In this document: positions 7,000-54,153 of the stretch, piece after piece | How the letters are laid out: each line of letters opens with the position of its first letter | How positions within the stretch are numbered: the first letter of the stretch is position 1 | DNA from: Thermodesulfobacteriota bacterium | GTDB lineage: Bacteria > Desulfobacterota > BSN033 > UBA1163 | DNA: 56,039 bases | Assembly (NCBI GenBank): GCA_035319625.1 | Contig: DATHCH010000303.1 | Coordinates: 1 to 56,039, forward strand | Direction: 5' to 3' | Notes under the pieces: generated by a model | The model's database searches: none | What the model saw: the letters and a program-made list of their open reading frames with translations, nothing else | What the model was told of the DNA's origin: nothing | Program-made: the position numbers and the translations under genes

Positions 7000-7310
7000 A
7001 TGCCTGACTCGGCAAAAAGTCAACAGCCAAAACTCCTCGATCAAGTCCGACAGCTACTCCGTCTGCACCACTACTCTATTCACACCGAGCGATCCTACGT
7101 GGACTGGATCGTGCGGTTTGTTCGTTTCCACAGCATGCGGTCCCCTGAGGCCCTCTTCCCGCCGAAGCCAAGATCGAATCGTTCCTGACCGACCTCGCCG
7201 TACACGCAAACGTTGCTCCCGCCACCCAGAACCAGGCGATGAATGCCCTGGTCTTCCTTTACAAGCGCGTCCTCAACCATCCTCTGCAGGACAGCATCAA
7301 TGCCGTTTAA
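7000..7310 (+). pseudogene. intI: integron-integrase-type tyrosine recombinase, N-terminal fragment (frameshifted and truncated)
   Basis: PKLLDQVRQLLRLHHYSIHTERSYVDWIVRFVRFH, frameshift near 7162, then [48 protein letters not shown] and a stop. This matches the IntI N-terminal SAM-like domain. The catalytic domain is missing. Confidence 0.65.
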
Positions 7311-7401
7311 CATTTAAAGGGTTTCTGTGGTGAAAATCATGGATATCCCAAATTCCAAAGAGCCTGCTCCCTTTTGCCTACCCTGGATATTGTTGGGAGC
7401 T

Positions 7402-7523
7402 TTATGCCCCAATTGGTTCTTCCGGAAGTTGAGCGCCGTGCCAGACAGCTACGATCCAGACGGTTTTTGAGCAATGGCTGCAAGGAACCGTTTGTGTCCC
7501 GAAGGAGTGAAAAGAACTTTCAA
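7402..7523 (-). pseudogene. degraded ParE/RelE-like toxin remnant
   Basis: N-terminal LKVLFTPSGHKRFLAAI.. overlaps the antitoxin stop. An out-of-frame C-terminal piece IVAVWHGAQLPEEPIGA follows. The middle of the gene is deleted. Confidence 0.3.
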
Positions 7524-7666
7524 GATTTCATCTCTTTTAGCAAGGAATCGGCTTCAGCGAAAACCACCTCAAGGTCATACCCCTTGCCTGCGTCGATCTC
7601 TTTTTCGCCCCAGGTAAGAAGGCGCAAAATCTCCAGCTCATGCTGGGAATGTTTATAAGCTTCCAT
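7520..7666 (-). CDS. 48-aa antitoxin-like protein
   Basis: MEAYKHSQHELEILRLLTWGEKEIDAGKGYDLEVVFAEADSLLKEMKS, below the track cutoff. Its stop overlaps the start of the toxin-like remnant, a typical type II TA arrangement. Confidence 0.4.
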   Translation of the reverse strand: MEAYKHSQHELEILRLLTWGEKEIDAGKGYDLEVVFAEADSLLKEMKS

Positions 7667-7676
7667 GCTTCCCTTT

Positions 7677-9915
<2,239 letters not shown>

Positions 9916-10015
9916 AAACAGAGGGCCCAAATACGGGGTCAAAGTGGCCTGGTTTGAATAGATGTTGGGGTCAACCGGGTCAAAATAAAAAATTGCATTA
10001 AGTATAAAATTTTAC

Positions 10016-10053: not shown

Positions 10054-10083
10054 AGTGGTAAAAAGTGGGAAAAGGTGGTATGG
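10054..10083 (+). promoter_or_regulatory. MraZ operator-like triple direct repeat
   Basis: AGTGGTAAAA / AGTGGGAAAA / GGTGGTATGG: three GTGG[GT] boxes at exact 10-nt periodicity, between the -10 and the mraZ start. Confidence 0.55.
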
Positions 10084-10109
10084 ATTTCTAAAATGCGGGG
10101 GATGAAGCA

Positions 10110-10553
10110 ATGTTTCGGGGTCGGTATGAGCACACCATAGACTCTAAAGGTCGAATCAGCATTCCTTCAAAGTTTCGAGAGATTCTCAGCAAGAAATATG
10201 ACGACCGATTAGTCATCACCAATTTTGACCGCTGTCTGGTCGCATTTCCTTACGAAGAATGGTTCACTTTAGTAGAGCAAAAAGTGAGTTCATTCTCACT
10301 CGTCAGAAAAGAAACGAGTGCTTTTTTGAGGTTCTTTTATTCGAGTGCGATCGATTGCCTCATCGACAAGCACGGAAGGCTTCTCATCCCCCAGACGTTA
10401 AGAGATTATGCGACCCTTCAAAAAGATATTGTCTTGGTGGGCGAAGGACGATTCGTGGAAATCTTCGCCAAGGAGCGTTGGCAGGAAGTCGCTCAACAGG
10501 CAGAAGAGGGTTTTGATCAAATCAGGGATACTTTGGCCAATCTGGGAATATAA
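10110..10553 (+). CDS. mraZ: transcriptional regulator MraZ
   Basis: 147 aa. MFRGRYEHTIDSKGRISIPSKFRE plus a second SpoVT/AbrB-like half, DKHGRLLIPQTLRDYA. Confidence 0.95.
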   Translation: MFRGRYEHTIDSKGRISIPSKFREILSKKYDDRLVITNFDRCLVAFPYEEWFTLVEQKVSSFSLVRKETSAFLRFFYSSAIDCLIDKHGRLLIPQTLRDYATLQKDIVLVGEGRFVEIFAKERWQEVAQQAEEGFDQIRDTLANLGI

Positions 10554-10560
10554 CCGCCAC

Positions 10561-10623
10561 TCGTGAATCGTGATTGGTGAATCGTGAACTTATCGGATCA
10601 CGAACTACGAGCCACGAATCACG
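10561..10623. repeat. word-repeat hairpin (CGTGA words), mraZ-rsmH spacer
   Basis: TCGTGAATCGTGATTGGTGAATCGTGAAC - loop - TCACGAACTACGAGCCACGAATCACG. Confidence 0.6.
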
Positions 10624-10628
10624 TCACT

Positions 10629-11510
10629 ATGGGATCACGACACATTTCCGTCATGGTTGAAGAGGTGATGGCATTTTTAAGATGTGAACCCGGTCATACT
10701 TATGTGGATGCGACTCTGGGAGGGGGCGGGCACGCTTTTGAAATTTTGAAGAGGTCCGCACCGGATGGAATGCTTATCGGAATGGAGTGGGATGAAGAGG
10801 CCCTGTCTGAGGCAAAAAAAACACTTCTATCCTTTGGTGATCGGGTCAAACTAATCCGAGAAAATTTCGTCCATCTTCCCGACCTGATGAAGGCCGAATC
10901 CGCCGATGGGATCCTGCTCGATTTAGGGCTTTCTTCCATTCAACTGGAAAGGGAGGAAAGGGGGTTTAGTTTCAAAGGAGAGGGCCCTCTGGATATGAGG
11001 ATGGACCAACGGATTGACGAGACAGCGGCTGACCTGGTCAATAACCTTTCGTCGGAAGAGCTGGAATCCATCCTCTTTCAATATGGAGAGGAAAGATGGG
11101 CCAAGCGAATTGTCAGAGCCCTCGTGGAGGAAAGAGAACGAGAACCCATCCGGACGACCCAGGCTTTAAGAAAGATTGTCCACCATGCCATCCCAAGACG
11201 ATTTCATTCCCGGAGAATTGACCCCGCCACAAGAACGTTTCAAGCCCTGCGTATCAGGGTGAATGAGGAATTGGAGAATTTGCAAAAAATACTGGAAACA
11301 GGATGGAAGATCTTAAAAAAGGGCGGACGGATGTGCGTCATCTCTTTTCACTCCCTCGAGGATCGAATGGTCAAGGAGACGTTCCGAGCCCTGGAGAAAC
11401 AGGAAAAGATGGTTATCCTGACGAAAAAACCCGTGACGCCGTCTGAAGAAGAACAGAAGAGAAATCCTCGATCCCGGAGTGCCAAACTGAGGTGTGCGGA
11501 GAGAATTTAA
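10629..11510 (+). CDS. rsmH: 16S rRNA (cytosine1402-N4)-methyltransferase RsmH
   Basis: HISVMVEEV start region and SAM motif YVDATLGGGGH. Start moved to 10629 because the track's upstream extension translates the hairpin repeat. Confidence 0.92.
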   Translation: MGSRHISVMVEEVMAFLRCEPGHTYVDATLGGGGHAFEILKRSAPDGMLIGMEWDEEALSEAKKTLLSFGDRVKLIRENFVHLPDLMKAESADGILLDLGLSSIQLEREERGFSFKGEGPLDMRMDQRIDETAADLVNNLSSEELESILFQYGEERWAKRIVRALVEEREREPIRTTQALRKIVHHAIPRRFHSRRIDPATRTFQALRIRVNEELENLQKILETGWKILKKGGRMCVISFHSLEDRMVKETFRALEKQEKMVILTKKPVTPSEEEQKRNPRSRSAKLRCAERI

Positions 11511-11511
11511 C

Positions 11512-11856
11512 ATGGCAAAGGCAATCGACAAAAATGGAGATCGAATCCTCTGGACAGAAGAAGATTCAAGGTCCGGGCCGAAAGGAATAAAACTAAATTC
11601 CCTCATCCTTTTCAGTCTCCTCACCCTTTTTTTCATCGGGGGATCCTTGTTCTATGTCTGGTCGAGAATTCAGGTGATCCAACTCGGATACGAAATTTCG
11701 AATGCCCTAAAGGAGGAGAGGGCCTTTACCGAAGCCAATAAGAAGTTGCGGCTGGAGATCGCTACGCTCAAGTCCTATGCGCGGATTGAAAAATTTGCTG
11801 CAGAGGAGTTGAGTATGTCTAAGCCTAAACCTGACCAGATGATTGTGATCCGATGA
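11512..11856 (+). CDS. ftsL: cell division protein FtsL-like
   Basis: Small bitopic protein. TM helix LILFSLLTLFFIGGSLFYVW followed by a coiled coil. Canonical position between rsmH and ftsI. Confidence 0.75.
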   Translation: MAKAIDKNGDRILWTEEDSRSGPKGIKLNSLILFSLLTLFFIGGSLFYVWSRIQVIQLGYEISNALKEERAFTEANKKLRLEIATLKSYARIEKFAAEELSMSKPKPDQMIVIR

Positions 11857-13826
11857 AACAGAAATCTATGAATTGGTTCAAGGTCCGGATCGTCTTTCTC
11901 TCGTGTCTCCTCTTCGTCTGTTTTGTATTCGTTATGGGGAGAATGTTTCAGCTTCAGGTGCTGAAAAAAGAGCAGCTCTATAAGCTGGCCGCACAACAGC
12001 AGCATGTTCAGATCCCCCTCGTTCCCAAACGAGGGACGGTTTACGATAGCAATGGAGATGAATTGGCAGTCAGCATTGAGGTCGAATCGGTTTATGTCGA
12101 TGCTCGGAAAGTCGTTGACGTAGAGAAAACAGCCAGAGAGCTTGCCTCGATTCTTCAGATCGATCGGGAGGAATTGAAACAGAGATTGAAGACCCATCGA
12201 CCTTTTGAATGGGTTCAAAGAAAAATCTCCTCAAAGGAAGCCGAACGGATCAAGGCCCTTCAGCTGCCCGGCGTTTCTTTCTTAAATGAGAACCGGCGTT
12301 TCTATCCGAATTCCCAACTGGCCGCTCATCTTATTGGTTTCGTAGGCCTCGATTCGAAAGGTCTGGAGGGAATAGAGTTCCAATACGACGCCTTGCTCAA
12401 CGGAGAGAACCGTGTATGGACGGCCGCCAGAGATGCCCTCGGCCGGCAAATTGCCATGGGCAACGTTCCCTTTGAAAAGGAGGATCATTACCGGAATATC
12501 GTCTTGACCGTCGACAAGGCCGTTCAGCATATCGCCGAGACAGAGCTGGATCGAGGTGTCGAAAGGTGGGGAGCGAAGGGAGGCATGGTTATTGCCATGG
12601 ATCCCTCGACCGGAAAGATCCTGGCCATGGCCTCCTACCCGACTTTTAATCCAAACCAGTTCATCCAGTACCGCTCCAAAAGCTGGAGGAACGAGGCTAT
12701 CTCTGATGTCTTTGAGCCCGGTTCTCTCTTTAAAGTTTTTCTCGCCGCGGCCGCCTTGGAGGAGCAGGTGGTTCGGCCCTCCGATTCCTTCTTTTGTGAG
12801 AATGGCTCGTACACGGTATATGACCGGACGATCCATGATACCTCCAAACATGGGTGGCTTACCTTTCAACAGATTCTCAAGTTCTCCAGTAATATCGGGG
12901 CATCGAAAGTGGGCGAGAAGATGGGCAGGGAGCGTTTCTACCGATATATCGCCGCCTTCGGATTCGGTGAGAAGACTCAAATTAATCTCCCGGGAGAAGG
13001 GAAAGGAATCGTTCACCACCCAAGGTATTGGCCGCCGGTTGCCCTGGATACCATCTCCTTCGGCCAGGGAATTTCAGTGACGGGGATTCAATTGGTGACC
13101 GCTCTGTCAGCCATTGCCAACGGCGGGTTCCTGATGAGGCCCTATGTTGTAGAGAAGACTCTGAATGAGAAAGGGGAGGTGGTCCAATCGTTTCAGCCGG
13201 AGACCATCAGGAAGGTCATTTCAGGGGCGACGGCTGAAAAGGTGACGGCACTACTTAAGACGACGACGGAGAAGGGAGGGACAGGGGAAGGAGCAGTGCC
13301 CGCAGGATACGACGTGGCCGGAAAAACGGGAACGGCGCAGAAGGTCGATTCTTTATTGGGCGGGTACTCCGAAACCCGCTACACCAGTAGTTTTATGGGA
13401 TTCGCCCCTTCCGGGGAACCTAAGCTCGCACTCTTAGTCGTCATTGATGAGCCGCAGGGAGGTAACTACGGAGGAGTGGTTGCTGCTCCGATATTTAAAG
13501 CGATCATGGAAAAGGTTCTTCCGTACCTCCATGTGGTCCCAAGGGGGACGATGATTGTGAAGAACGAACTCAACGCCGCGCCCCGAAAAGAGATGTCGGA
13601 AGCCCAACCCTTGATCGACGAGATCAAGGTGGGTAAGGGAGCAGAAACGGTTGTGATGCCAGACCTTAAGGGGCTGTCCATGCGGAATGCCTTGAGCCGC
13701 ATAGAAGGGCGGGGACTAATCATCAAGGTCTCAGGGAATGGAAAGGTCGTGGAGCAGACTCCCCGGCCGGGGACAGTGATCGAGAAAGGGGATATCTGTT
13801 TCTTGAAGTTTCGATCTTCATCGTAA
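11853..13826 (+). CDS. ftsI: peptidoglycan D,D-transpeptidase FtsI (class B PBP) with C-terminal PASTA domain
   Basis: SxxK (GSLFK), SxN (FSSNIG) and KTG (GKTGTAQ) motifs. The last ~60 aa, VVMPDLKGLSMRNALSRIEGRGLIIKVSGNGKVVEQTPRPGTVIEKGD, are PASTA-like. Confidence 0.93.
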   Translation: MKQKSMNWFKVRIVFLSCLLFVCFVFVMGRMFQLQVLKKEQLYKLAAQQQHVQIPLVPKRGTVYDSNGDELAVSIEVESVYVDARKVVDVEKTARELASILQIDREELKQRLKTHRPFEWVQRKISSKEAERIKALQLPGVSFLNENRRFYPNSQLAAHLIGFVGLDSKGLEGIEFQYDALLNGENRVWTAARDALGRQIAMGNVPFEKEDHYRNIVLTVDKAVQHIAETELDRGVERWGAKGGMVIAMDPSTGKILAMASYPTFNPNQFIQYRSKSWRNEAISDVFEPGSLFKVFLAAAALEEQVVRPSDSFFCENGSYTVYDRTIHDTSKHGWLTFQQILKFSSNIGASKVGEKMGRERFYRYIAAFGFGEKTQINLPGEGKGIVHHPRYWPPVALDTISFGQGISVTGIQLVTALSAIANGGFLMRPYVVEKTLNEKGEVVQSFQPETIRKVISGATAEKVTALLKTTTEKGGTGEGAVPAGYDVAGKTGTAQKVDSLLGGYSETRYTSSFMGFAPSGEPKLALLVVIDEPQGGNYGGVVAAPIFKAIMEKVLPYLHVVPRGTMIVKNELNAAPRKEMSEAQPLIDEIKVGKGAETVVMPDLKGLSMRNALSRIEGRGLIIKVSGNGKVVEQTPRPGTVIEKGDICFLKFRSSS

Positions 13827-38453: not shown

Positions 38454-39821
38454 ATGATGGAGAAGAAAGTCCTCGTCGTGGATGATGAGGAGAGCGTTGT
38501 TCAATCGATTGAGGGTGTTCTGGAGGACGAGGGGTTCCGAGTCGCCAAGGCAAAGAGCGGAGAAGACGCGATTAAGGTTTTCCAGGAGGAGGAACCAGAC
38601 GTTACCCTCCTCGATATCTGGTTGCCGGGGATGGATGGCATAGAGGTGTTGAAACGATTCAAATGGATAGCCCCGGAGTGCCAAGTGATCATGATCTCCG
38701 GTCATGCAACGATCTCAACGGCCATGACCGCCGTGAAATTAGGCGCTTTTGATTTTATTGAAAAGCCTCTTTCTCTTGATGTTCTTCTTATGACGATTTA
38801 TCGAGCCCTCGACCATCAGAAAGAGTTGGCCGTGCAGAGATCGGGAGAAATTGTCACAGAGGAATCCTTCCAGGGCAAGAAGATCTTTCCAAAGGAGGTG
38901 GCCGGAGAACTCCTCGGTCCCCCTCCTGATCCCATCCGGGAGGCTATCCCCTTGGCCATGAAGGATTCAAAGAGAAAGGGGATTTCTTTATTACCTCAGC
39001 GTACCCTGAAACAGAGCATGGTGCTTTACGGGACAGGGCTTTTTTCTGGAAAGAAGACAGGGCTTCTCCTCCAACCCCTACCCCCCCATAGCGGCATCCT
39101 TTTTGGAAATGTCTCGTCGGACGAAGTGGTGCCCGCCCATGTCGATTATGTCGAGACGACGGAATTCGCCACTTCTCTGAAGAAGGGGAGAGCCATTGCC
39201 AGGACGGTCGAGCACCTCATGGCCGTGTTACACGCCTATCGTATCACCAACTTAATGGTAAAAATGATTGAAGAGATTCCGGTGATGGACGGTTCTGCTT
39301 TGGAGTTTTGTAAGATTGTGGAAGAGGCGGGCGTGGAGGAACAGGAGGAGAAGGTGGACGAATTGGTCATCGATCGAAGGCTGGAGACCGTCCACAAAAA
39401 TAAATCCCTGATCGTCGAGCCTGCCGACATCTTCTCTGTCCACTTCTTTTTGGACTATCCTCCTCCCATCGGGCAGCAGACGTTGGACTTTGTCTTAGAG
39501 GACGAGTCGGCCTTTAGGGATCAGATCGCTCCGGCGAGAACCTTCGGCTTTGTTAAAGATGCGGAGATGCTTGGACGGATGGGAAGATTGGGGGGTGGGC
39601 GACTCCATAACTTTATCCTGGTTGACGAGGAGAAGATCGTCAACACCGAGCTCCGGTTTCCCGACGAATTTGTACGGCATAAGATTCTTGACCTGATCGG
39701 CGATTTCTATCTCCTCAACCGTCCGATTCGAGGAAGAGTGACCGCCCATTTGACCGGCCACACGGAAAATATCACTCTCATGAAGAAGATTCAGGAAGCG
39801 GCAAGAGAAGAGGAGCGATAA
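38454..39821 (+). CDS. lpxC: response-regulator receiver domain fused to UDP-3-O-acyl-GlcNAc deacetylase (REC-LpxC)
   Basis: REC: VVDDEE, phospho-acceptor LLDIWLPGMDG, MISGH, FDFIEKP. A ~70-aa linker follows. LpxC: TVEHLMAVL, HKILDLIGD and TGHTEN, so the Zn ligands and catalytic His are conserved. Confidence 0.88.
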   Translation: MMEKKVLVVDDEESVVQSIEGVLEDEGFRVAKAKSGEDAIKVFQEEEPDVTLLDIWLPGMDGIEVLKRFKWIAPECQVIMISGHATISTAMTAVKLGAFDFIEKPLSLDVLLMTIYRALDHQKELAVQRSGEIVTEESFQGKKIFPKEVAGELLGPPPDPIREAIPLAMKDSKRKGISLLPQRTLKQSMVLYGTGLFSGKKTGLLLQPLPPHSGILFGNVSSDEVVPAHVDYVETTEFATSLKKGRAIARTVEHLMAVLHAYRITNLMVKMIEEIPVMDGSALEFCKIVEEAGVEEQEEKVDELVIDRRLETVHKNKSLIVEPADIFSVHFFLDYPPPIGQQTLDFVLEDESAFRDQIAPARTFGFVKDAEMLGRMGRLGGGRLHNFILVDEEKIVNTELRFPDEFVRHKILDLIGDFYLLNRPIRGRVTAHLTGHTENITLMKKIQEAAREEER

Positions 39822-40340: not shown

Positions 40341-40400
40341 ATCAATGCATCACCTCTTGATGAAGGGTCATTGAAGCGCGTAAACAAGGGAGTGAGAAAG

Positions 40401-41616
40401 ATGGTGGATTATTTTCAAGTGGAAGGATTGCTGAATGAAGAAGAGAAAAGGTTCAGGGACAAGGTCCGAAGATTCGTGGATGAAGAATGCATGCCCCTTA
40501 TTGCCACCCATTTCGATAATGGAACCTTTCCCATGGAACTCATTCCCAGAATGGCGGAGATGGGACTTTTCGGCCTCCATGTGGATGGCTACGGATGTAC
40601 CAGATCAAACCATACGATTTATGGCTTGATCTGCCAGGAGCTGGGCCGGTGTGATAGTGGTCTCAGGGCCATGTTTTCAGTTCAAAATTCCTTGGTGATG
40701 TATCCCATCTATGCCTTTGGATCCGAAGAGCAGAAATCAAGGTGGCTTCCCAGGATGGCACGAGGTCAGGCCATCGGCTGTTTCGGTCTCTCCGAACCCG
40801 ATTTCGGATCGAATCCTTCTGGAATGGAGACGCGAGCCGTAAAGCAAGGAGACCATTACCTCCTCAATGGAACCAAGATGTGGATTACCAATGGGTCCGT
40901 TGCGAGTGTGGCACTGATTTGGGCGAAAATAGATGACGAAATCCGGGGGGTCCTGGTAGAAGCTGGGACTCCGGGATTTCAAGCTCCCCTGATCCAGAGG
41001 AAGTTCTCTTACCGAACCTCTCCCACTTCCGCCCTGATGTTCAAGGACTGCAAGATTCCCGAAAAAAACCTTCTCCCGGGAGCCAAGGGCTTGAAATCGG
41101 TTTTGAGCTGCCTGAACTATGCCCGGTACGGGGTCGCTTGCGGCGCCTTAGGCTCCGCCATTGCCTGCTACGAAGCCGCTGAGGCCTTTGCCCGCCAAAG
41201 GAGGGTCTTTGAAAAACCCGTCGCCTCTTAATCAGCTTGTCCAGGAAAAGCTGGTGAGGATGGTATTGGAAATTACGAAGGCGCAGTTGCTCACCTTTCA
41301 TCTAAGCAGATTACTGGATCGGCATCAAGCGAGACCTCCCCAGATCTCGATGGCCAAGCTGAACAATGTTCGGGAAGGGATGAAGGTCGCTCGTGCGGCC
41401 AGAGACATCCTCGGGGGCCGGGGGATTCTGGCCGATCACCATGTCATCCGCCATCTCTGTGATCTCGAGGCCGTGAGCACGCTGGAGGGAACGGAGAGTA
41501 TTCATACGCTGATCACCGGACAGGACCTGACCGGAATTTCAGCCTTCTATTTAGGATTTTTTCGGCATGTGTCGCCATCCCAGCTTCTCTCTGTTCTTCT
41601 CTCTGTTTTTTCTTGA
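40401..41616 (+). pseudogene. glutaryl-CoA dehydrogenase-like acyl-CoA dehydrogenase with a single +1 frameshift
   Basis: Two track ORFs (40371-41231, 41161-41616) join as ...RQRRVFEKPVAS | NQLVQEKLVRMVLEI... An extra T lies in the TCTTAA run near 41227. GCFGLSEPDFGSNP and VIRHLCDLEAVSTLEGT motifs are intact. Confidence 0.8.
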
Positions 41617-46508: not shown

Positions 46509-48005
46509 TCACAAAGGCCAGTTGGCTCTGATCATTGTGCCGGCTCCCGGAGTCGTTTCAATCACAAAGACGCCGCCTGAAAGCTCGGTACGCTCTCTCA
46601 TGCTGTTAAGCCCCAGTCCTTTCTTTGGCTTTTCGGACGACAGAATTTCTTCCAAGCCGAATCCTATCCCGTTGTCTTTAATGATTAATTCAATCCTGTT
46701 CTCCATGGTTTGAAGCGAGAGATGAACGAGGTCAGCCTTGCTGTGTTTGGCGATATTGTTGAGGGCCTCCTGGATCAAGCGGTAGATCGCCGTTTTGAGA
46801 GGAACAGAGACTTCGTTCTCCTGGAGGCCAATCTCTTTTTCGATACGGATGTGGGAATAGATTTTTTGATACTCCCGGCAGAACCAGTCGAGGGTTGCCA
46901 ATACTCCAAGGTCATCCAGCGTGGAAGGCCAGAGATCCATCTGGATCCTTCTGGTTTCTTCAATTGTTTCTCTAACCAGGGGAATGAGGGTCTCCGGAGA
47001 TTTCTTTTTATTTTTTTCCTGAAGGGTGCTTTCTATTTTGAACTTGATGGCCGTCAGCATCTGCCCGATGCTGTCATGGAGTTCTACGGCGATCCTTCTT
47101 CTCTCGTTCTCCTGGACGGCCAGGAGCTGGGAAGAGAGATAACGGAGGCGTCCCTCCGAATCCTTCAGTTCCTCCTCTAAATTAAACCGATTGGCTGCCT
47201 CCCCGATCAAAGGCGCCATAGACTCGATAAACACGATACTGTTTAAGGTGACTTTCCCTTCACATTCATCAGCGACATGGATTGCCCCCATAATCTTTTC
47301 GCGGTAGCGAATGGGAACGATGGCGACCGACTTGAACCCGTGCTTGATGCAGACGCCTCTGAACCTTGTCTTCTCCTCTTCCAATAAGCTTCCGATAAAT
47401 TCAAAAGTGTTCTCGCAACGGAAGGAGCCTGCGGGTGTCATCACAGGTCTATCTTGTGGATCGGGTCTCCCCGTGACGACCCGGATACAGGCGCACTGAT
47501 CATACTTGACCGAAAGCAGATTCTCCGATTCCCAGAACTCCTGATCGAAGCCCACATAGGACTCGTAGGGGATATAATCTTTCTCATTCAATATCCGGAT
47601 GCCCACGCAACGGTAACCGCTCCAGGGCTGAATCAGTTCAATAACAGAATCAAGGTACTCCTTTCGGGTCGATTTTCTCACAAAGAGGTTCAGGAGAAAA
47701 TTGGTAGCTTCCATGCGCCTGTGGGCTTCTGTGAGCTCGGTAATGTCGCGGGCCGCGGCAAAGACGCCCTGGATCTCGCCAGCCTCGTTTCTATAAACCG
47801 TTGCGTTGTATAAAACGTTTACGACTTTGCCCGACGTATGACGGATGGCAAGAGGATAGTCTCTAACCAATCCCTCCGTAAAGACCTGTTGGTATCCTTC
47901 TTTAGCTCTCACAGGGTCCGTAAAATAGTCCGAGAAATCGCTTCCAATAAGTCCCTCGCGGGTCATGCCGGTCACAAGCTTCGTAGCCTCATTCACATCC
48001 ATCAC
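46509..48005 (-). CDS. PAS-GAF-HisKA_3-HATPase sensor kinase segment (C-terminal part of an interrupted giant kinase)
   Basis: H-box RRRIAVELHDSIGQML, N-box EALNNIAKHS, DNGIGF and GLGLNSMRER. The partner type fits the NarL-family regulator at 45571. Confidence 0.85.
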   Translation of the reverse strand: MMDVNEATKLVTGMTREGLIGSDFSDYFTDPVRAKEGYQQVFTEGLVRDYPLAIRHTSGKVVNVLYNATVYRNEAGEIQGVFAAARDITELTEAHRRMEATNFLLNLFVRKSTRKEYLDSVIELIQPWSGYRCVGIRILNEKDYIPYESYVGFDQEFWESENLLSVKYDQCACIRVVTGRPDPQDRPVMTPAGSFRCENTFEFIGSLLEEEKTRFRGVCIKHGFKSVAIVPIRYREKIMGAIHVADECEGKVTLNSIVFIESMAPLIGEAANRFNLEEELKDSEGRLRYLSSQLLAVQENERRRIAVELHDSIGQMLTAIKFKIESTLQEKNKKKSPETLIPLVRETIEETRRIQMDLWPSTLDDLGVLATLDWFCREYQKIYSHIRIEKEIGLQENEVSVPLKTAIYRLIQEALNNIAKHSKADLVHLSLQTMENRIELIIKDNGIGFGLEEILSSEKPKKGLGLNSMRERTELSGGVFVIETTPGAGTMIRANWPL

Positions 48006-48547
48006 CTTTCCGTCTGCACTGATCGTGACAAGGGGATCGAGCTGGCCTCGATGAGACTGCGGTTATATTGGTGGGCTGCCTTCAGAGCCTCTTCAGCCCG
48101 TTTCCGCTCAGTGATATCGAGGAAGGATGCAACCCAGCCCGTTGTCTCCCCTTTTGTGCCAGAGAGAGGTGAGATAGAAATCAGAGTGTCAAAGCGTTCT
48201 TTGTTACGCCGGCGAAGTCGCAGCTCGAAACCCTGCACTGATTTCCTTCTGGCCAAATTTTGTTGAATTTCCCCGGCAATCTTTGCAGATTCAGGCGGCC
48301 AAAAGACAAAAGGAGGGTACATCCCAACCAATTCATCTTCGCTCCATCCGGCCATTTTGCAAAAAGCATTGTTAACGTAGATGAGTTTCCCGGAAGGGTC
48401 GGTCGCCGCGACACCGGCAACCATGGAGTTTTCAATCGCCTTGCGGAAATTATATTCCTTCCGAAAGGCATCTTCTGCTCGCTTTTGCTCGGTGACATCC
48501 TGGAGCGAAAACACTAAAAGCTCCACTTCACCCTTATCATCTAACAA
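48002..48547 (-). CDS. PAS-domain segment of the interrupted kinase
   Basis: A PAS core (VAATDPSGKLIYVNNAFCKMAGWSEDELVG) between coiled-coil linkers (QDVTEQKRAEDAF, ITERKRAEEAL). Separated from the downstream segment only by a frameshift near 48040-48050. Confidence 0.7.
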   Translation of the reverse strand: MLDDKGEVELLVFSLQDVTEQKRAEDAFRKEYNFRKAIENSMVAGVAATDPSGKLIYVNNAFCKMAGWSEDELVGMYPPFVFWPPESAKIAGEIQQNLARRKSVQGFELRLRRRNKERFDTLISISPLSGTKGETTGWVASFLDITERKRAEEALKAAHQYNRSLIEASSIPLSRSVQTER

Positions 48548-48670
48548 TGGTGTTAAAGTTCAGTCCCAATAAGTGAGGCCCCACTCAGGATGGTCCGGGA
48601 AGGAAAACGGTTTCGCAAAGGCTTGATAAGGTGCCTTTGTCTCTACCACTTGCTTGAAGATAGCCTCATT

Positions 48671-51238
48671 TTACTCGTGAGGATAAAATTCGAAATGGTT
48701 ATGCCCTGGAAATTCAGAAATGTCACGCTGGCAGGTGTTGGCGTAGGCTTCGTTGACTCTGACAAAATTGAAATTCCTGTCGAGAAATACAAGAGGAGTG
48801 ATCGTTGAAGTAAAGAATCCCTCCAAGATCTTCGATTGCTCCATGACAGCCTTACCAGACTTCATGTACCCGATCATTTCTCCGAGTTCTATGGCAATGG
48901 CATTGATCAGACCTCTTTCTTCCTTTGTGAAAGGTCCTTCGTAACATGTGGGCCTCTCTTTCAGGTAGCACACTTCTATGCTGCCGACGGTTTCTCCGTG
49001 GACAATGATGTCACTGGCCTGCTTCCATGCGGTCTCTCTGAAGTTATCGGCCTTATATCCGTTGCCTCCAAGAACGATTCGTGCAGTGGCGACTTGCGGA
49101 TATTGCCACCCCGAGGAAATGAGATGGGCAATATTCTGGAGTTTTTCTTCCAGCCGGGTGTATTGTCTTTCGACATAATAACTGATGGAGTAAAGGAGGT
49201 TTAATTGCTTCACCCGCTCATTGAGATCATGGGTTAGTTTTCGTAACGCTTCCTCGGTTTGTTTTCGCGCTGCAATTTCACCCCTCAATTCTTCGTTGAC
49301 TTTTGCCAGCTCTGCGGTCCGCTCTTGAACGCGTATTTCTAATTCGTCCCTAGACCTTTGGAGCTCGTCGAAAAGTCGCGTGTTTTCAAGGGCAAGACCC
49401 AGCGAGTGGCCAAGCTTTCGGGCAAAATCGATCTGGGCACTGGCGAAGGTAACAGGGGCCGAATGGTGGTTTACGAAAAGGACGCCTATCACCCTTTCTT
49501 TAGTGACCAAGGGGATGACTATAACCGAACGAACATTATGTTTTTGCATGTGCTCTCGGTTGACTCTTCCGTCATTGAAGACATCATTAATAACAACCAC
49601 CTGTTTCGTTTTAATCGCAAGTAAAGCATGGGGTTCTTGCTCATCAACCATTTCTGCCCCAATGAAATCCTCTGGGAAGCCGTAGACATAACTTACAACC
49701 CATTCATTTCCTTTCCTCAGGGATATGGCTGCCGACTCAGCGCCTATTGCCTCGCAAGCTTGTGCGACAACTCGATTCACAATCTCATCAAAATCGAGAG
49801 TGGAATTGATAACGAGGCTAATATCGTTAAGGGATTGACTTAGCATTTGCGCCTGCTTGCGCTCGGTGATGTCGCAGCTATAAATACGTATGCGATCCGT
49901 ATTCGGAACACGGAAAAAAGTTTGATCATACCAGAAATTGCCAATCTTTACTTCATGTCTAAGAGGCCCCTTGATTTCTTCTTTCAGAGTAGAAGCGAAC
50001 GATTCCAAACCGGCAAGCGATGGGTGCTGGATCCCAGAAGTTGTAAGATCAGGGAATAATTCTTTAGCTGCTGGGTTAAGATAATGGAGGGTTCCAGCCA
50101 GATCTACTTCCACGATGGGGTTGGGATTTATCTCAGGAAACGAAGCAAGGTAGTGAAGTGACTCTTCAGCACGCTTGCGCTCGGTGATTTCCTGTTTCAG
50201 GTATTCGTTTGCATTTTCAACTTCGGCGGTGCGCTGGCGGACGCGTTCCTCAAGCTGTACATCGAGTTGTTTGAGTTCGTTCTCCATTTGTTTAAGATGG
50301 GTGACGTCTCCAAACGTTCCTATCCAGCCTACGACTTTTCCCTCGCGATCTTTTAGGGGTGAAGGCAGGACCAAAACATCGAAGCGTTCTCCGTTCTTTC
50401 TCATGAGGCGGAGTTCAAGGCCGTCACGGGAAGCCTTGCCACTCATTACTGTATGGAAAGCCCTGGTGATGTGATCCAATTTCTCCGGAGGCCAATAGGC
50501 AAAGGGTGGTTTTCTTCCAAGTAATTCCTCCTCGCTTCGTCCAACCATCCTGCAGAAAGTATTATTAACGTACGATTGTCGCCCGTCCAAATCGACGGCG
50601 GCAATTCCCGGAAGGATAGAATTCTCGACGGCAATGCGAAAGGCATGTTCGGTTTCGGCTTTCTCCTGTGCCTTCTTGAGTTCGGTGATGTCAGTGACGA
50701 CGGATCGTATCCTGAAGGTTTTCCCATCAGGGGCTGAAATGCTCTCAAGGGACGCATAGAAAGGCTCCCCATTTTTCCCAATGAGTTTCAGCTCGCATCG
50801 CTCTTTCGCCCCGGGCTTTAAGAGATTCAGACGGTGATCACTAAAGAGAAAATGAAAGTCCGGATCCACAAATGTCGAAAATGGGCTATGGAGCAACTTT
50901 GTCCTCTCGACACTCAGAAGGTTGGCTCCCGTGAGATTGACTTCCAAAATTTCTCCTCGCTGGCTGAATGTGAAATAGCCAACCCGGGCAAAATCGTAGA
51001 GATCGGAATACATGGTTCGAGACTCCTCAATCTCTGCCCGATCCCTCCGCAGCTCCTCATTCTGCATCTCCAGCTCAATCTGATGTACGTGAAGCTCGTG
51101 GACGAGCTTCTTGACATCCTTGTCTTCGACCTTGGAGACAATCTGAGAATTTTCGGAGAGCGGCTTCTCCGCCCTCTGCCGCAGTGGTTCTTTTTTGGAT
51201 TTCTTGGTGGAACTCATATGTGACGCTCCTGTCTTCAA
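48671..51238 (-). CDS. multi-PAS / double-GAF sensor segment (N-terminal part of the interrupted kinase)
   Basis: 855 aa. Repeated PAS cores joined by coiled-coil linkers of the TERK[RQ]AE type, plus two GAF-like regions. Ends at an in-frame TAA in the middle of a PAS domain. Confidence 0.8.
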   Translation of the reverse strand: MKTGASHMSSTKKSKKEPLRQRAEKPLSENSQIVSKVEDKDVKKLVHELHVHQIELEMQNEELRRDRAEIEESRTMYSDLYDFARVGYFTFSQRGEILEVNLTGANLLSVERTKLLHSPFSTFVDPDFHFLFSDHRLNLLKPGAKERCELKLIGKNGEPFYASLESISAPDGKTFRIRSVVTDITELKKAQEKAETEHAFRIAVENSILPGIAAVDLDGRQSYVNNTFCRMVGRSEEELLGRKPPFAYWPPEKLDHITRAFHTVMSGKASRDGLELRLMRKNGERFDVLVLPSPLKDREGKVVGWIGTFGDVTHLKQMENELKQLDVQLEERVRQRTAEVENANEYLKQEITERKRAEESLHYLASFPEINPNPIVEVDLAGTLHYLNPAAKELFPDLTTSGIQHPSLAGLESFASTLKEEIKGPLRHEVKIGNFWYDQTFFRVPNTDRIRIYSCDITERKQAQMLSQSLNDISLVINSTLDFDEIVNRVVAQACEAIGAESAAISLRKGNEWVVSYVYGFPEDFIGAEMVDEQEPHALLAIKTKQVVVINDVFNDGRVNREHMQKHNVRSVIVIPLVTKERVIGVLFVNHHSAPVTFASAQIDFARKLGHSLGLALENTRLFDELQRSRDELEIRVQERTAELAKVNEELRGEIAARKQTEEALRKLTHDLNERVKQLNLLYSISYYVERQYTRLEEKLQNIAHLISSGWQYPQVATARIVLGGNGYKADNFRETAWKQASDIIVHGETVGSIEVCYLKERPTCYEGPFTKEERGLINAIAIELGEMIGYMKSGKAVMEQSKILEGFFTSTITPLVFLDRNFNFVRVNEAYANTCQRDISEFPGHNHFEFYPHE

Positions 51239-51240
51239 TT

Positions 51241-51270
51241 TCGGATTGCGGATTGCGAATTACGAATTAC
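51241..51270. repeat. solo word-repeat arm (CGGATTGCG / CGAATTAC words)
   Basis: TCGGATTGCGGATTGCGAATTACGAATTAC. No complementary arm is seen. The same GGATTGCG word occurs at 36563-36645. Confidence 0.5.
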
Positions 51271-51334
51271 TCTAAAGTTTAGGAGATGGGGAGATAGGGG
51301 GGTGGGGAACCTCATCCTTCCCGAACCTAAGTGC

Positions 51335-51631
51335 TCAACGTCGCTTCGCCCCTGGCAGTAACCACGGTTGAGGACTGTTGATCATGGTCACTATCTTTCC
51401 CAGAATGTTATCGTAGGAGGTCAATAATTTTCGTCCTCTTTTTGTGCTTAAATAACCACACCGAGCTGAGAACTCCAACCATACCTGCGTCTCGGCAGCC
51501 TCTGCCTCAGCGTCACTTAGCTTACTGAGGAATGAAGCTTCATAACGCCTCTTACGCCACGCTTCTGCTATATTTGTAGAAATCGATCGTGATGAACGCC
51601 GTATCTGATATCCTGGTTCGCGCCCCTTTGA
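51335..51631 (-). pseudogene. four-helix-bundle protein (23S rRNA IVS protein family), C-terminal fragment without a start codon
   Basis: The open frame reads ..EPGYQIRRSSRSISTNIAEAWRKRRYEASFLSKLSDAEAEAAETQVWLEFSARCGYLSTKRGRKLLTSYDNILGKIVTMINSPQPW. There is no in-frame start, and a TAA lies immediately upstream. Confidence 0.6.
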
Positions 51632-51828
51632 TTATCATAATACATCCCAATTTTATCATTTAACTCCGTTATTTTCCAGATGTCAAGAAGGATGGAATGT
51701 GTCCAAGGCATCGTTATTCATTCACCTTTCTTGACGTAAGCCTCCCTTTCTTGTATATTCAACTCACCCTGAAAGGAAGCTCTTATGGTGGCCGTCAGCG
51801 AATTAGTTGGTACTCTTGGAAAGGGGTG

Positions 51829-54153
51829 ATGAGCGTGGACCTTTTTGAGAAGGCCTATAACTATCATGATGCCGAGAGAATTATTAATCTCGGTCTCTAC
51901 CCTTATTTTCGCGTCAACGAAGGGGCGGTAGACACCACGGTCATTATGAATGGCCGCAAAACAGTGATGATCGGCTCCAACAATTATCTCGGTTTGACCT
52001 CGCATCCGGAGGTGAAGGAGGCTGCCGTCAAGGCCATTGAGAAGTACGGGACCGGCTGCACAGGCTCCCGTTTTCTGAACGGGACGATCGATTTGCATGT
52101 GGAGCTGGAGTGGCGCCTGGCCCGGTTTATGAAGAAAGAGGCCTCCTTGGTATTTAGTACCGGGTTTACGACCAATCTGGGCGTTATCTCCACGATCGTG
52201 GGAAAGAATGACATCGTCATCTCGGACCGCACCAATCATGCGTCGATCTTGGACGGCTGTCGGATGGCCTTAGGAAAAGTTTTAAAATTTCGTCATAATG
52301 ACATGGAAGACCTGGAGCGCATCCTGATCAATATTCAGGATAAGAAGGTGGGTAAACTCATTGTGGTCGACGGGGTATTTTCCATGGAAGGCGATCTGGC
52401 GGATCTGAAGCATATTGTCCCTTTGGCTAAGAGATACCGATGCCGGGTGATGGTGGATGAGGCACACAGCCTGGGCGTGCTGGGCAAGGGCGGCCGGGGC
52501 ACGTGCGAAGAAATGGGTGTGCTGGATAAGGTGGATCTGGTGATGGGCACGTTTTCAAAATCGTTTGCGAGCTTGGGGGGATTTATCGCCGGCGAAGAAA
52601 AAGTGATCTCGTTCTTAAAGCACAATGCCCGCACCTTTATGTTCCAGGCGGCCCCTCCGCCCGCTGCCGCAGCGACCGCTCTGGCTGCCTTGAATATTCT
52701 GGAGCGCGAGCCGGAGCGCAGGCAAAAGCTCTGGGAGAATGTGCGCTACATGCTCAGGGAAATTCAACGCATGGGATTTAAGACCGCGGCGACGCAATCG
52801 GCCATCATTCCTATTCTTGTGGGCGATGATTTGAAAACCTTCCAATTTGCCAAGATGCTCGAGCAGGAGGGTGTCTACGTCAATCCGGTGGTCTCTCCCG
52901 CCGTTCCACCCGGGATGGCCTGTCTTCGGACCTCCTATACGGCCACGCATTCTCGCCAGGAGCTGGACTATGCCCTGGACAAGCTTAGAAAAATCGGCAC
53001 CGAGTTGGGTGTGATCGGACCCAGCGCGCCGGGGGCGCCCATCGACATCCGCACGATCGGTGAGGAGAAGAGCGATCAAATGAATTTCTTGAAGCTGCCC
53101 TGGAAAATCTACACCCGGGACCACAATTGGGTGCCGCCGATGATTACGGATGTGGAGACGATTTTTGACCGTCAAGAAAATATTTTCTACGGCCACGGCG
53201 AGGCGAGAGCTTTTTTGGCGTATCGAGGAGGGGAGATCGCAGGCCGGATTGTGGCTGCCGTTGACGATCGCGCCAACCGGTATCATAATGAGCGGGCGGG
53301 TTTCTTCGGTTTTTTCGAGGCCGACCGGGACTACAGTGCCGCCGCCGCGCTTTTGGATGCCGCCAGGAAGTGGTTGTCGGAGCGGGACATGAAGGTGATA
53401 CGCGGGCCGATCGCTTTTTCCCAATTGGACGGGATGGGCTGCTTAGTGGAAGGGTTTGACCATCCGCCGGCCATCATGATGCCTTACAATCCTTCTTATT
53501 ATCCTGAGTTTCTGGAGAAATATGGTTTTGAGAAAGAGAAGGATTTCTATGCCTATTGGATGGACGCCCGCGGTCCTTTCCCAGAGGGTTTGGAGAAACT
53601 CTCCGAGCATGCCCAGAAGAAGGAGGGGATTGCCATCCGGCACCTGAACATGAGCCGGTTCCGGCAGGAGATGAATACGCTGATGGGGATATTGAACGAT
53701 GCCAACAGTGAGGAATTCGGGTTTACTCCTCTCAGCGCCGGCGACCTCCAGTACCTTATCGCCAAACTTCGGCCTGTGATTGAAAAGGAGCTGGTCAATT
53801 TTGTGGAGGTCAAGGGCAAGCCCGTGGCCTTCTCGATGATTTTGCCCAACTATAATGAAGTACTCAAACGCTTTGACGGGCGCGTGGGCTTTGCCGACAT
53901 GTTGAAATTTTATTTCTACTCCAAGCAGATCAAGACCCTCAGGTTCGCCTTACTGGCTGTGCGCAAAGCTTTCCAGCGCCGGGGATTGGAGACCCTCCTG
54001 TATCTCGAGTCCTTCCGGGTGGCAAAGGCACGCGGCTACACGGGCGGCGAGCTTTCATGGGTACGGGAAGACAACAACCTGCTCAACAAAAGAATTGAGA
54101 TGATGGGGGGCAAGCGCATCAAAACGTACCGGGTGTATCAATTGAAGCTCTAA
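51829..54153 (+). CDS. fusion protein: alpha-oxoamine synthase (serine palmitoyltransferase/KBL-like) + ~390-aa GNAT-like N-acyltransferase domain
   Basis: N half: GSNNYLGL, DEAHSLGVLG, PLP-lysine GTFSKSFASLGG. C half: RAGFFGFFEA..., LAVRKAFQRRGLETLL (acyl-CoA binding-like), ELSWVREDN. Start set at MSVDLFEKAY (the track ORF begins at 51697). Confidence 0.85.
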   Translation: MSVDLFEKAYNYHDAERIINLGLYPYFRVNEGAVDTTVIMNGRKTVMIGSNNYLGLTSHPEVKEAAVKAIEKYGTGCTGSRFLNGTIDLHVELEWRLARFMKKEASLVFSTGFTTNLGVISTIVGKNDIVISDRTNHASILDGCRMALGKVLKFRHNDMEDLERILINIQDKKVGKLIVVDGVFSMEGDLADLKHIVPLAKRYRCRVMVDEAHSLGVLGKGGRGTCEEMGVLDKVDLVMGTFSKSFASLGGFIAGEEKVISFLKHNARTFMFQAAPPPAAAATALAALNILEREPERRQKLWENVRYMLREIQRMGFKTAATQSAIIPILVGDDLKTFQFAKMLEQEGVYVNPVVSPAVPPGMACLRTSYTATHSRQELDYALDKLRKIGTELGVIGPSAPGAPIDIRTIGEEKSDQMNFLKLPWKIYTRDHNWVPPMITDVETIFDRQENIFYGHGEARAFLAYRGGEIAGRIVAAVDDRANRYHNERAGFFGFFEADRDYSAAAALLDAARKWLSERDMKVIRGPIAFSQLDGMGCLVEGFDHPPAIMMPYNPSYYPEFLEKYGFEKEKDFYAYWMDARGPFPEGLEKLSEHAQKKEGIAIRHLNMSRFRQEMNTLMGILNDANSEEFGFTPLSAGDLQYLIAKLRPVIEKELVNFVEVKGKPVAFSMILPNYNEVLKRFDGRVGFADMLKFYFYSKQIKTLRFALLAVRKAFQRRGLETLLYLESFRVAKARGYTGGELSWVREDNNLLNKRIEMMGGKRIKTYRVYQLKL

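Follow-up and report, generated by a model that had tools for sequence, protein, structure and literature searches.

A predicted serine palmitoyltransferase–ceramide synthase fusion protein in a peat-soil Thermodesulfobacteriota bacterium

Introduction

Which reactions are catalyzed by a protein that carries an alpha-oxoamine synthase and a large GNAT-like acyltransferase in one open reading frame (ORF)? The question is raised by a gene (here spt-bcerS, or the fused gene) in a 56,039-nucleotide stretch of DNA (the window; contig DATHCH010000303.1 of assembly GCA_035319625.1) from a Thermodesulfobacteriota bacterium of peat soil. An earlier reading made from the letters and their ORF translations (the sequence-only reading) had seen in it a serine palmitoyltransferase (Spt)-like condensing enzyme joined to a ceramide synthase of the acyltransferase type, which together would channel two successive steps of the Caulobacter-type pathway, and both identifications hold by sequence, motif and fold evidence. 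We consider it likely that this one polypeptide unites the enzymes for steps one and two of the known ceramide (sphingolipid) pathway of bacteria; it is a known pathway in a new architecture, not a new kind of system.

The genes of this pathway are CC_1162, CC_1154 and CC_1164 in Caulobacter crescentus, and spt, yghO and an epimerase gene in Escherichia coli B and O111 (CC_1154 being equated with yghO in PMC9386255). The enzyme types involved are Spt, the bacterial ceramide synthase (bCerS, the YghO family of tandem GNATs) and a CerR-like reductase.

The N-terminal half: a serine palmitoyltransferase homolog

Of the NCBIfam models, SerpalmtaseCFB (the Bacteroidota-type Spt) matches the N-terminal domain best, with 546.7 bits against an equivalog cut-off of 640, while all other families score ≤413 (beta-proteobacterial Spt 413, Kbl and BioF ∼400) and likewise stay under their own cut-offs. 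The SerpalmtaseCFB cut-off is reached in none of 41 related genomes, including by the native spt genes that stand beside bcerS (maximum 573 bits), and thus seems to be tuned to Bacteroidota. Among solved structures, the best match is the SPT of Sphingobacterium multivorum (8GUH/3A2B; 417 bits, E 5e-124, residues 6-390), followed by Thermus KBL/AONS (331 bits), alpha-proteobacterial SPTs (∼291), Kbl (∼279), cysteate-C-fatty acyltransferase (261) and BioF (∼207). The domain is also 39% identical to the Spt of E. coli, an active enzyme with 3-oxosphinganine as its product (PMC9386255).

The active site of S. multivorum SPT and its surroundings (PMC10196870) comprise Asn52, Gly80, Ser81, Phe83, Leu84, His138, Ser185, Asp210, Ala212, His213, Thr241, Ser243, Lys244, Met271 and Phe272. 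The full set is kept, with identical residues at the aligned positions N51, G79, S80, F82, L83, H137, S185, D210, A212, H213, T241, S243, K244, M271 and F272 of the fused protein. It includes both the serine-holding residues (N51, G79, S80, H137, S185, S243 and M271) and the features of fold-type I enzymes dependent on pyridoxal phosphate (PLP; H137, D210, H213, T241 and K244, with a match to Aminotran_1_2). The alpha-oxoamine synthase motifs quoted in the sequence-only reading are all present (GSNNYLGL at 49-56, DEAHSLG at 210-216, GTFSKS at 240-245). That reading had left the amino acid substrate open; from the residue correspondence, the active site points to serine.

Alternatively, the condensing domain might use alanine, glycine or cysteate, in which case the fused enzyme would make an accessory lipid or signal of the 1-deoxy-ceramide-like, sulfonolipid-like or other N-acyl aminoketone type, outside the native ceramide pathway. 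The score below the Spt equivalog cut-off speaks for such a substrate, as does the acceptance, if poor, of alanine and glycine by S. multivorum SPT (PMC10196870). Against it stands the complete retention of the serine-contacting residues. For cysteate in particular, the pocket of the enzyme from Capnocytophaga ochracea has Ala82 and uses Lys280 (PMC13692747), whereas the fused protein has Ser80 at the former position and, by a constant numbering offset rather than an alignment, Ala274 at the latter. These pocket differences, together with the 261 bits for the cysteate enzyme against 417 for SPT, place the domain outside the sulfonolipid-forming cysteate-C-fatty acyltransferases. Taken with the distribution of the gene in its genus (below), use of an amino acid other than serine appears unlikely.

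Membership in the BioF or Kbl type, with a role in biotin or threonine metabolism and a chance link to an unrelated acetyltransferase, is a further possibility. It has in its favor the public name of the fused homologs, '8-amino-7-oxononanoate synthase', and the scores of about 400 bits with the BioF and Kbl models, but both scores lie below the cut-offs of those models (400.3 against 426.45 bits for the BioF model TIGR00858) and ∼145 bits below the Spt model. Two alpha-oxoamine synthases are all that the genome encodes, and the one besides the fused gene is a true BioF (489.7 bits, which passes the cut-off of 426.45) that adjoins bioA on contig C153. In a quick maximum-likelihood tree, an Spt-like ingroup of 104-107 rows that includes E. 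coli Spt is split from BioF and Kbl with 100% support in the Shimodaira-Hasegawa-like approximate likelihood ratio test (SH-aLRT). The outgroup consists of only three rows (BioF and Kbl of E. coli plus the BioF of this genome, without ALAS and CqsA), and one protein, P0122 (end branch 6.76), was left out of the trees. The placement that the sequence-only reading had called for thus puts the domain with Spt-like enzymes and away from BioF and Kbl.

The C-terminal half: a bCerS/YghO-type acyltransferase

The C-terminal domain aligns over its full length with YghO of E. coli K-12 (31% identity over 369 residues, E 1e-58, BLASTP), with an hhalign probability of 100. Genes for dihydroceramide acyl-CoA N-acyltransferase, termed aca, include CC_1154, yghO (ECD_02850) and Swit_3908 among those named in PMC9386255. 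The sequence-only reading had assigned the domain to a widespread family of large GNATs, and this is borne out by 7397 cluster representatives (E ≤ 0.001), most of which are stand-alone proteins 370-390 residues long. An NCBIfam search with the C-terminal domain alone gave no family match, and Acetyltransf_6 of Pfam is touched by 9 of 57 family members (alignment A2).

The AlphaFold model of the domain (predicted local distance difference test score 94.3; 57-row alignment) has a tandem GNAT fold, and its top Foldseek matches are tandem GNATs (E to 3e-15), among them a Clostridium glucosamine N-acetyltransferase, MAB_4324 and MshD. A single-sequence search of the PDB with the domain returned chance S100 matches only, solved GNATs being reached by the family profile alone. 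The profile places residues ∼716-724 (QRRGLETLL) on acyl-CoA motif A of these GNATs, consistent with a predicted acyl-CoA-binding region, and the other motifs quoted for this half (FFGFFEA at 492-498, SWVREDN at 743-749) are in place together with QRRGLETLL.

It might be that only the Spt half works as proposed, while the GNAT half acts on another acceptor, catalyzes O-acylation or plays a part in structure or regulation, leaving N-acylation to the stand-alone bCerS of the genome. Among the 52 family positions that are at least 85% conserved, six are changed in the fused protein (including W630F and G710A), which would fit such a shift, while the other 46 are kept along with the acyl-CoA motif region. 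Divergence among bCerS paralogs is suggested by two Bacteroidales bins (L032, 8001-11360; L033, 8001-11422), in which two bCerS-like genes in tandem come after spt, both of them only 23-26% identical to the fused C-terminal domain. Set against this, both domains are conserved over the fused clade down to ∼65% identity. With the repeated fusions and the genus comparison described below, we regard this explanation as decidedly unlikely.

One gene in independent assemblies

The sequence-only reading had asked whether the fusion recurs in other genomes or dissolves into two genes in read data. Fused full-length proteins of 766-812 residues with 64-95% identity are found in ENA, JGI, NCBI and Logan assemblies, and a second large fused group (777-839 residues) is ∼40% identical across the whole length. 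The same single-ORF arrangement is present in another genome of the genus (L001, a bin named 'uncultured delta proteobacterium'). The domain junction (about 53017-53064) is bridged with zero indels by contigs of three peat metagenome runs, of which the best-matching DNA run may be the source sample of the genome. In addition, contigs of a peat metatranscriptome (run X20) lie on parts of both halves, covering a small share of the gene; they are weak evidence of transcription and fall short of proving a single transcript. The two halves are thus one gene, and an assembly artefact, like the BioF/Kbl explanation, is contradicted by the present results; we hold either to be very improbable.

Adjacent spt and bcerS genes and repeated fusion

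Among the 80 best related loci from one-per-species genomes, spt is followed directly by a separate bcerS in 62, stands alone within the stretch compared in 17 and is fused in one. The taxa represented include Ignavibacteriota, Zixibacteria, Sphingobacteriaceae (with the cultured Mucilaginibacter oryzae DSM 19975), Bdellovibrionota, Binatia, Nitrospirota and Acidobacteriota, all of them groups with paired genes, and also Balneolota, Rhodothermota and Planctomycetota; a frequent location of bCerS and CerR near Spt has also been described in metagenome work (PMC11334938). The pairs belong to the same two families and have the same order (spt first) as the fused gene, but have their own stop and start codons, whereas in the fused gene, as in three or four further lineages or more, the stop is lost and a short linker is found instead. 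Between the two conserved halves, only this linker varies in length and sequence (alignment A1), and its position corresponds to the spt stop codon and bcerS start codon of non-fused relatives.

The fused state changes six times on the Spt tree and five times on the bCerS tree, and strongly supported branches force at least six and at least four changes, respectively. Fused groups keep the same neighbors in both trees (P0185 with Binatia, P0037 with Bacteroidota or Sphingobacteriaceae). Judging from these trees, the fusion appears to have arisen independently at least four or five times. Repeated fusion of neighboring genes is a classic sign of consecutive or physically coupled steps and gives independent genomic support for back-to-back action of the two enzymes; it likewise argues against a GNAT half with an unrelated task.

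Programmed readthrough at an in-frame stop between the two genes was considered for loci L002-L036 and rejected, as the second gene has its own start codon and several loci have more than one stop. The many same-frame pairs result from tblastn alignments that run through the stop and rank such pairs first.

Ceramide genes elsewhere in the genome and loss of the native spt

No reductase adjoins the fused gene, as the sequence-only reading had observed, but contig C309 of the same genome encodes a CerR-like reductase along with a second bCerS and a candidate transferase of the PAP2 type (Table 1). The membrane protein of the PAP2_3 family may be a head-group transferase; its match to phosphoinositol dihydroceramide synthase is faint (27 bits, far under the cut-off). 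A dedicated acyl carrier protein (ACP) or acyl-ACP synthetase was not found beside the fused gene, the search for either being confined to that neighborhood.

Comparison of 15 genomes of the genus, eight of which carry the fused gene, suggests how the two loci are related. In fusion-free relatives (G014, G021, G004, G010, G016 and G017) the cluster order is cerR-like, spt, bcerS, PAP2. The native spt is missing from seven genomes (G000, which is the genome of the window, and G013, G009, G008, G012, G015 and G005), where only ∼80 bases separate the cerR-like gene from bcerS. Six of these seven have the fused gene, and the seventh (G005) has a third Spt paralog; among the eight genomes with a native spt, only G006 and G007 also have the fused gene. 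The fused gene probably took over the Spt role in its own genome, and its presence in six of seven genomes without native spt fits a normal supply of long-chain base, which is a further point against an accessory product from another amino acid. Pointing the other way on that question are the accessory status of the fused gene (eight of 15 genomes), its location in a variable region apart from the native cluster, and the stand-alone bCerS already in the genome.

As to its origin, the Spt half shares only ∼55% identity with the native Spt of relatives, and the bCerS half ∼40% with native bCerS; each half falls into its own clade with 100% support, apart from the native genes of the relatives, and the fused clade also includes proteins of other candidate phyla. 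By these comparisons, neither the native spt nor the native bcerS is the source of the fused gene. Its separate clades, low identity to native genes and relatives in other candidate phyla make an outside origin the simplest reading, and the gene was probably acquired from outside the lineage, which would have made the native spt dispensable.

The native bcerS is intact in all fusion carriers examined except G007, where it is split by a frameshift (L116, C3, 6433-7591) and the fused gene is intact. The general retention of native bCerS favors the idea that the GNAT half does not N-acylate the Spt product, while G007 speaks against it. The retained protein may differ in acyl-chain specificity, or its substrate may be released base.

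Further paralogs and signs of decay are seen in the genus. A third Spt (399 residues) and a third bCerS paralog (∼385 residues) occur apart from the native cluster in G005, G008, G012, G014 and G015; in G005 they lie 16 kb apart on contig C4 (L110, 1982-3073 and 18180-19361), and in G014 on contigs C78 and C89 (L108 and L109). Decay of the pathway seems to be under way in G011 (L121, C53, 5816-7082), which has its native bcerS in three pieces and a truncated PAP2 gene and in which the fused gene was not found.

Proposed function

The product of the fused gene is likely a bifunctional, soluble, cytoplasmic enzyme of ceramide-backbone synthesis that replaces the deleted native spt. No hydrophobic segment of transmembrane strength is present (maximum Kyte-Doolittle mean of 1.35 in a 19-residue window), and both Spt and bCerS have been proposed to be cytoplasmic and to act before reduction (PMC11087976). 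The Spt domain, which presumably forms a PLP-dependent dimer as other alpha-oxoamine synthases do, would condense L-serine with a long-chain acyl thioester to 3-ketodihydrosphingosine (3-ketosphinganine). The bCerS domain, with a predicted acyl-CoA site in its second lobe, would then N-acylate this amine to N-acyl-3-ketosphinganine (oxidized ceramide), the CerR-like reductase encoded on contig C309 would subsequently reduce the keto group, and the neighboring PAP2_3 membrane protein would probably add a phospho head group. What the data show are the identities of the domains, their conserved catalytic residues, the linkage of the two genes, the encoded reductase and likely head-group transferase, and the complementary absence of the native spt; the choice of serine, the nature of the acyl donors, an acylation that precedes reduction, any channeling between the domains and the acquisition by transfer are what we infer. 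A predicted complex of the Spt and bCerS halves scored 0.00, a value that bears neither way on contact between the domains.

Several points weigh against this assignment. Apart from the Spt score below its equivalog cut-off (above), the enzymatic role of the fused clade is a prediction; for the C-terminal half, the link to bCerS is indirect and runs through E. coli YghO and a homology statement in a paper. With an intact stand-alone bCerS retained, the fused bCerS domain is not obviously needed, but its specificity may differ. The genome (3.52 Mb) is 83.6% complete, so that a stand-alone spt in the unassembled part is conceivable. Finally, CerR identity to that of G000 divides the genus into subclades (74-93% against 61-69%) that match the spt states; as the two states track two subclades, loss of the native spt was probably a single event and the counts given above are not independent.

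A stronger version of the proposal, which we put forward tentatively and with rather more doubt than conviction, is that the protein is a self-contained 'oxidized ceramide synthase' that hands 3-ketosphinganine from the Spt site to the bCerS site, forming a transferable module, while the native bCerS makes a second ceramide species. If so, the module would be a natural proof that bacteria acylate before reducing; it would have replaced the native spt in one peat-dwelling subclade of Thermodesulfobacteriota and perhaps, in a different strain, the native bcerS, and the retained native bCerS would make a ceramide with a different acyl chain.

Comparison with known systems

The ceramide pathway of Caulobacter and E. 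coli uses the same enzyme types as are found here (an Spt-type enzyme, a tandem GNAT of the YghO/bCerS family and, elsewhere in this genome, a CerR-like reductase). The differences are that those enzymes are separate whereas Spt and bCerS here form one polypeptide, that the Spt half of the fused gene belongs to the Bacteroidota (CFB) type and not to the alpha- or gamma-proteobacterial one, and that this genome has an additional stand-alone bCerS. S. multivorum SPT, the best solved match and identical at every described active-site residue, is a stand-alone protein of 398-399 residues, to which the fused protein adds ∼380 C-terminal residues. A natural Spt-bCerS fusion was not described in any paper found in our literature searches.

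In bacterial ceramide synthesis, it is disputed in which order the last two steps occur. Acylation before reduction is the view of Stankeviciute et al. 2022 (cited in PMC11087976), and the opposing, eukaryote-like order is given in PMC11324152 and PMC9386255. A covalent Spt-bCerS unit fits the former proposal without proving the order, and offers a single-protein system for a direct in vitro test of both the disputed step order and substrate channeling. Within the genus, the fused gene standing in for the native spt is a clear example of how one gene of a lipid pathway can be displaced by another, and the comparison provides evidence for a functional Spt half in the fused protein. Public annotation of such proteins as '8-amino-7-oxononanoate synthase' or a generic aminotransferase conceals that peat and wetland metagenomes contain predicted sphingolipid producers.

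In E. coli O111 (L090), yghO lies beside genes for a fatty acyl-AMP ligase, an epimerase-family protein, ACP and Spt, and paralogs of lptG and lptF. In E. coli K-12 (L089, 9044-11341), IS5 abuts yghO and the rest of the O111-type sphingolipid cluster is absent, a loss already described in work on E. coli B strains. Mycobacterial proteins of the BioF2 type also combine an alpha-oxoamine synthase with a GNAT/FemAB-like acyltransferase domain, but in the reverse order; the Acetyltransf_6 matches of nine family members noted above are a further point of likeness.

Coordinates and neighboring genes

The fused gene translates free of stops into 774 residues. A longer frame would be possible from the ATG at 51697, but the ATG at 51829 is preferred, as the starts of homologs align with it (alignment A1) and a purine-rich GGAAAGGGG lies immediately 5' of it. 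Pfam detects Aminotran_1_2 at residues 46-386 (E 1.4e-62) and, weakly, Acetyltransf_1 at residues 659-749.

Table 1. Positions of the fused gene and its parts in the window, and of candidate ceramide genes on contig C309 of the same genome (G000)
Feature	Position	Strand	Basis or remark
Whole fused gene spt-bcerS	51829..54153	+	Single open frame, 774 codons + stop; full-length fused homologs; same ORF in L001
Spt domain (predicted PLP-dependent alpha-oxoamine synthase), residues 1-396	51829..53016	+	NCBIfam SerpalmtaseCFB; PDB 8GUH/3A2B; active-site residues
Predicted PLP lysine K244 inside GTFSKS	52546-52563	+	Active-site correspondence to S. multivorum SPT
Short Pro/Gly/Ala-rich linker GPSAPGAPIDIRTIGE, residues 397-412	53017..53064	+	Length and sequence vary in alignment A1
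bCerS/YghO-family tandem-GNAT acyltransferase domain, residues ∼413-774	53065..54150	+	YghO homology; AlphaFold model; family profile
First GNAT lobe	roughly 53041-53574	+	
Second GNAT lobe, predicted to bind acyl-CoA	roughly 53629-54150	+	
Motif QRRGLETLL	53974-54000	+	Aligned by family profile to solved GNATs
Epimerase-family gene	G000:C309 (L100) 7044-8060		
CerR-like epimerase-family reductase	G000:C309 (L100) 8968-9996		33% identical to E. coli gene, E 3.6e-27
Stand-alone bCerS	G000:C309 (L100) 10068-11237		40% identical to fused C-terminal domain; intact; directly downstream of CerR-like gene
PAP2_3 membrane protein	G000:C309 (L100) 11302-12168	minus	

On contig C309, a 155-codon frame (L100, 8479-8946) was considered as a gene and rejected; it is arginine-rich, has no family match, is split over two frames in G013 and looks non-coding.

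In the window, the ∼590 bases upstream of the fused gene (51241-51828) have no family-matching ORF and contain heptamer-word repeats, with ggattgcggattgcgaatta at 51245-51270. The upstream neighbor (46509-51238, minus strand) is a large PAS/GAF sensor histidine kinase in three ORFs (48671-51238, 48002-48547 and 46509-48005). The region around the fused gene is variable, since in G013 the stretch from the same LuxR-type regulator to the fused gene contains other genes. Further upstream, an ORF for an acyl-CoA dehydrogenase (40371-41231, plus strand, 286 residues) is probably truncated, with ∼48 of 150 positions of its C-terminal domain covered. At 38454-39821 (plus strand), Pfam identifies a response-regulator receiver domain in one protein with LpxC, which catalyzes the committed step of lipid A synthesis. 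As lipid A and sphingolipids are linked in Caulobacter (PMC9393093), this receiver-LpxC fusion may merit reading alongside the sphingolipid genes.

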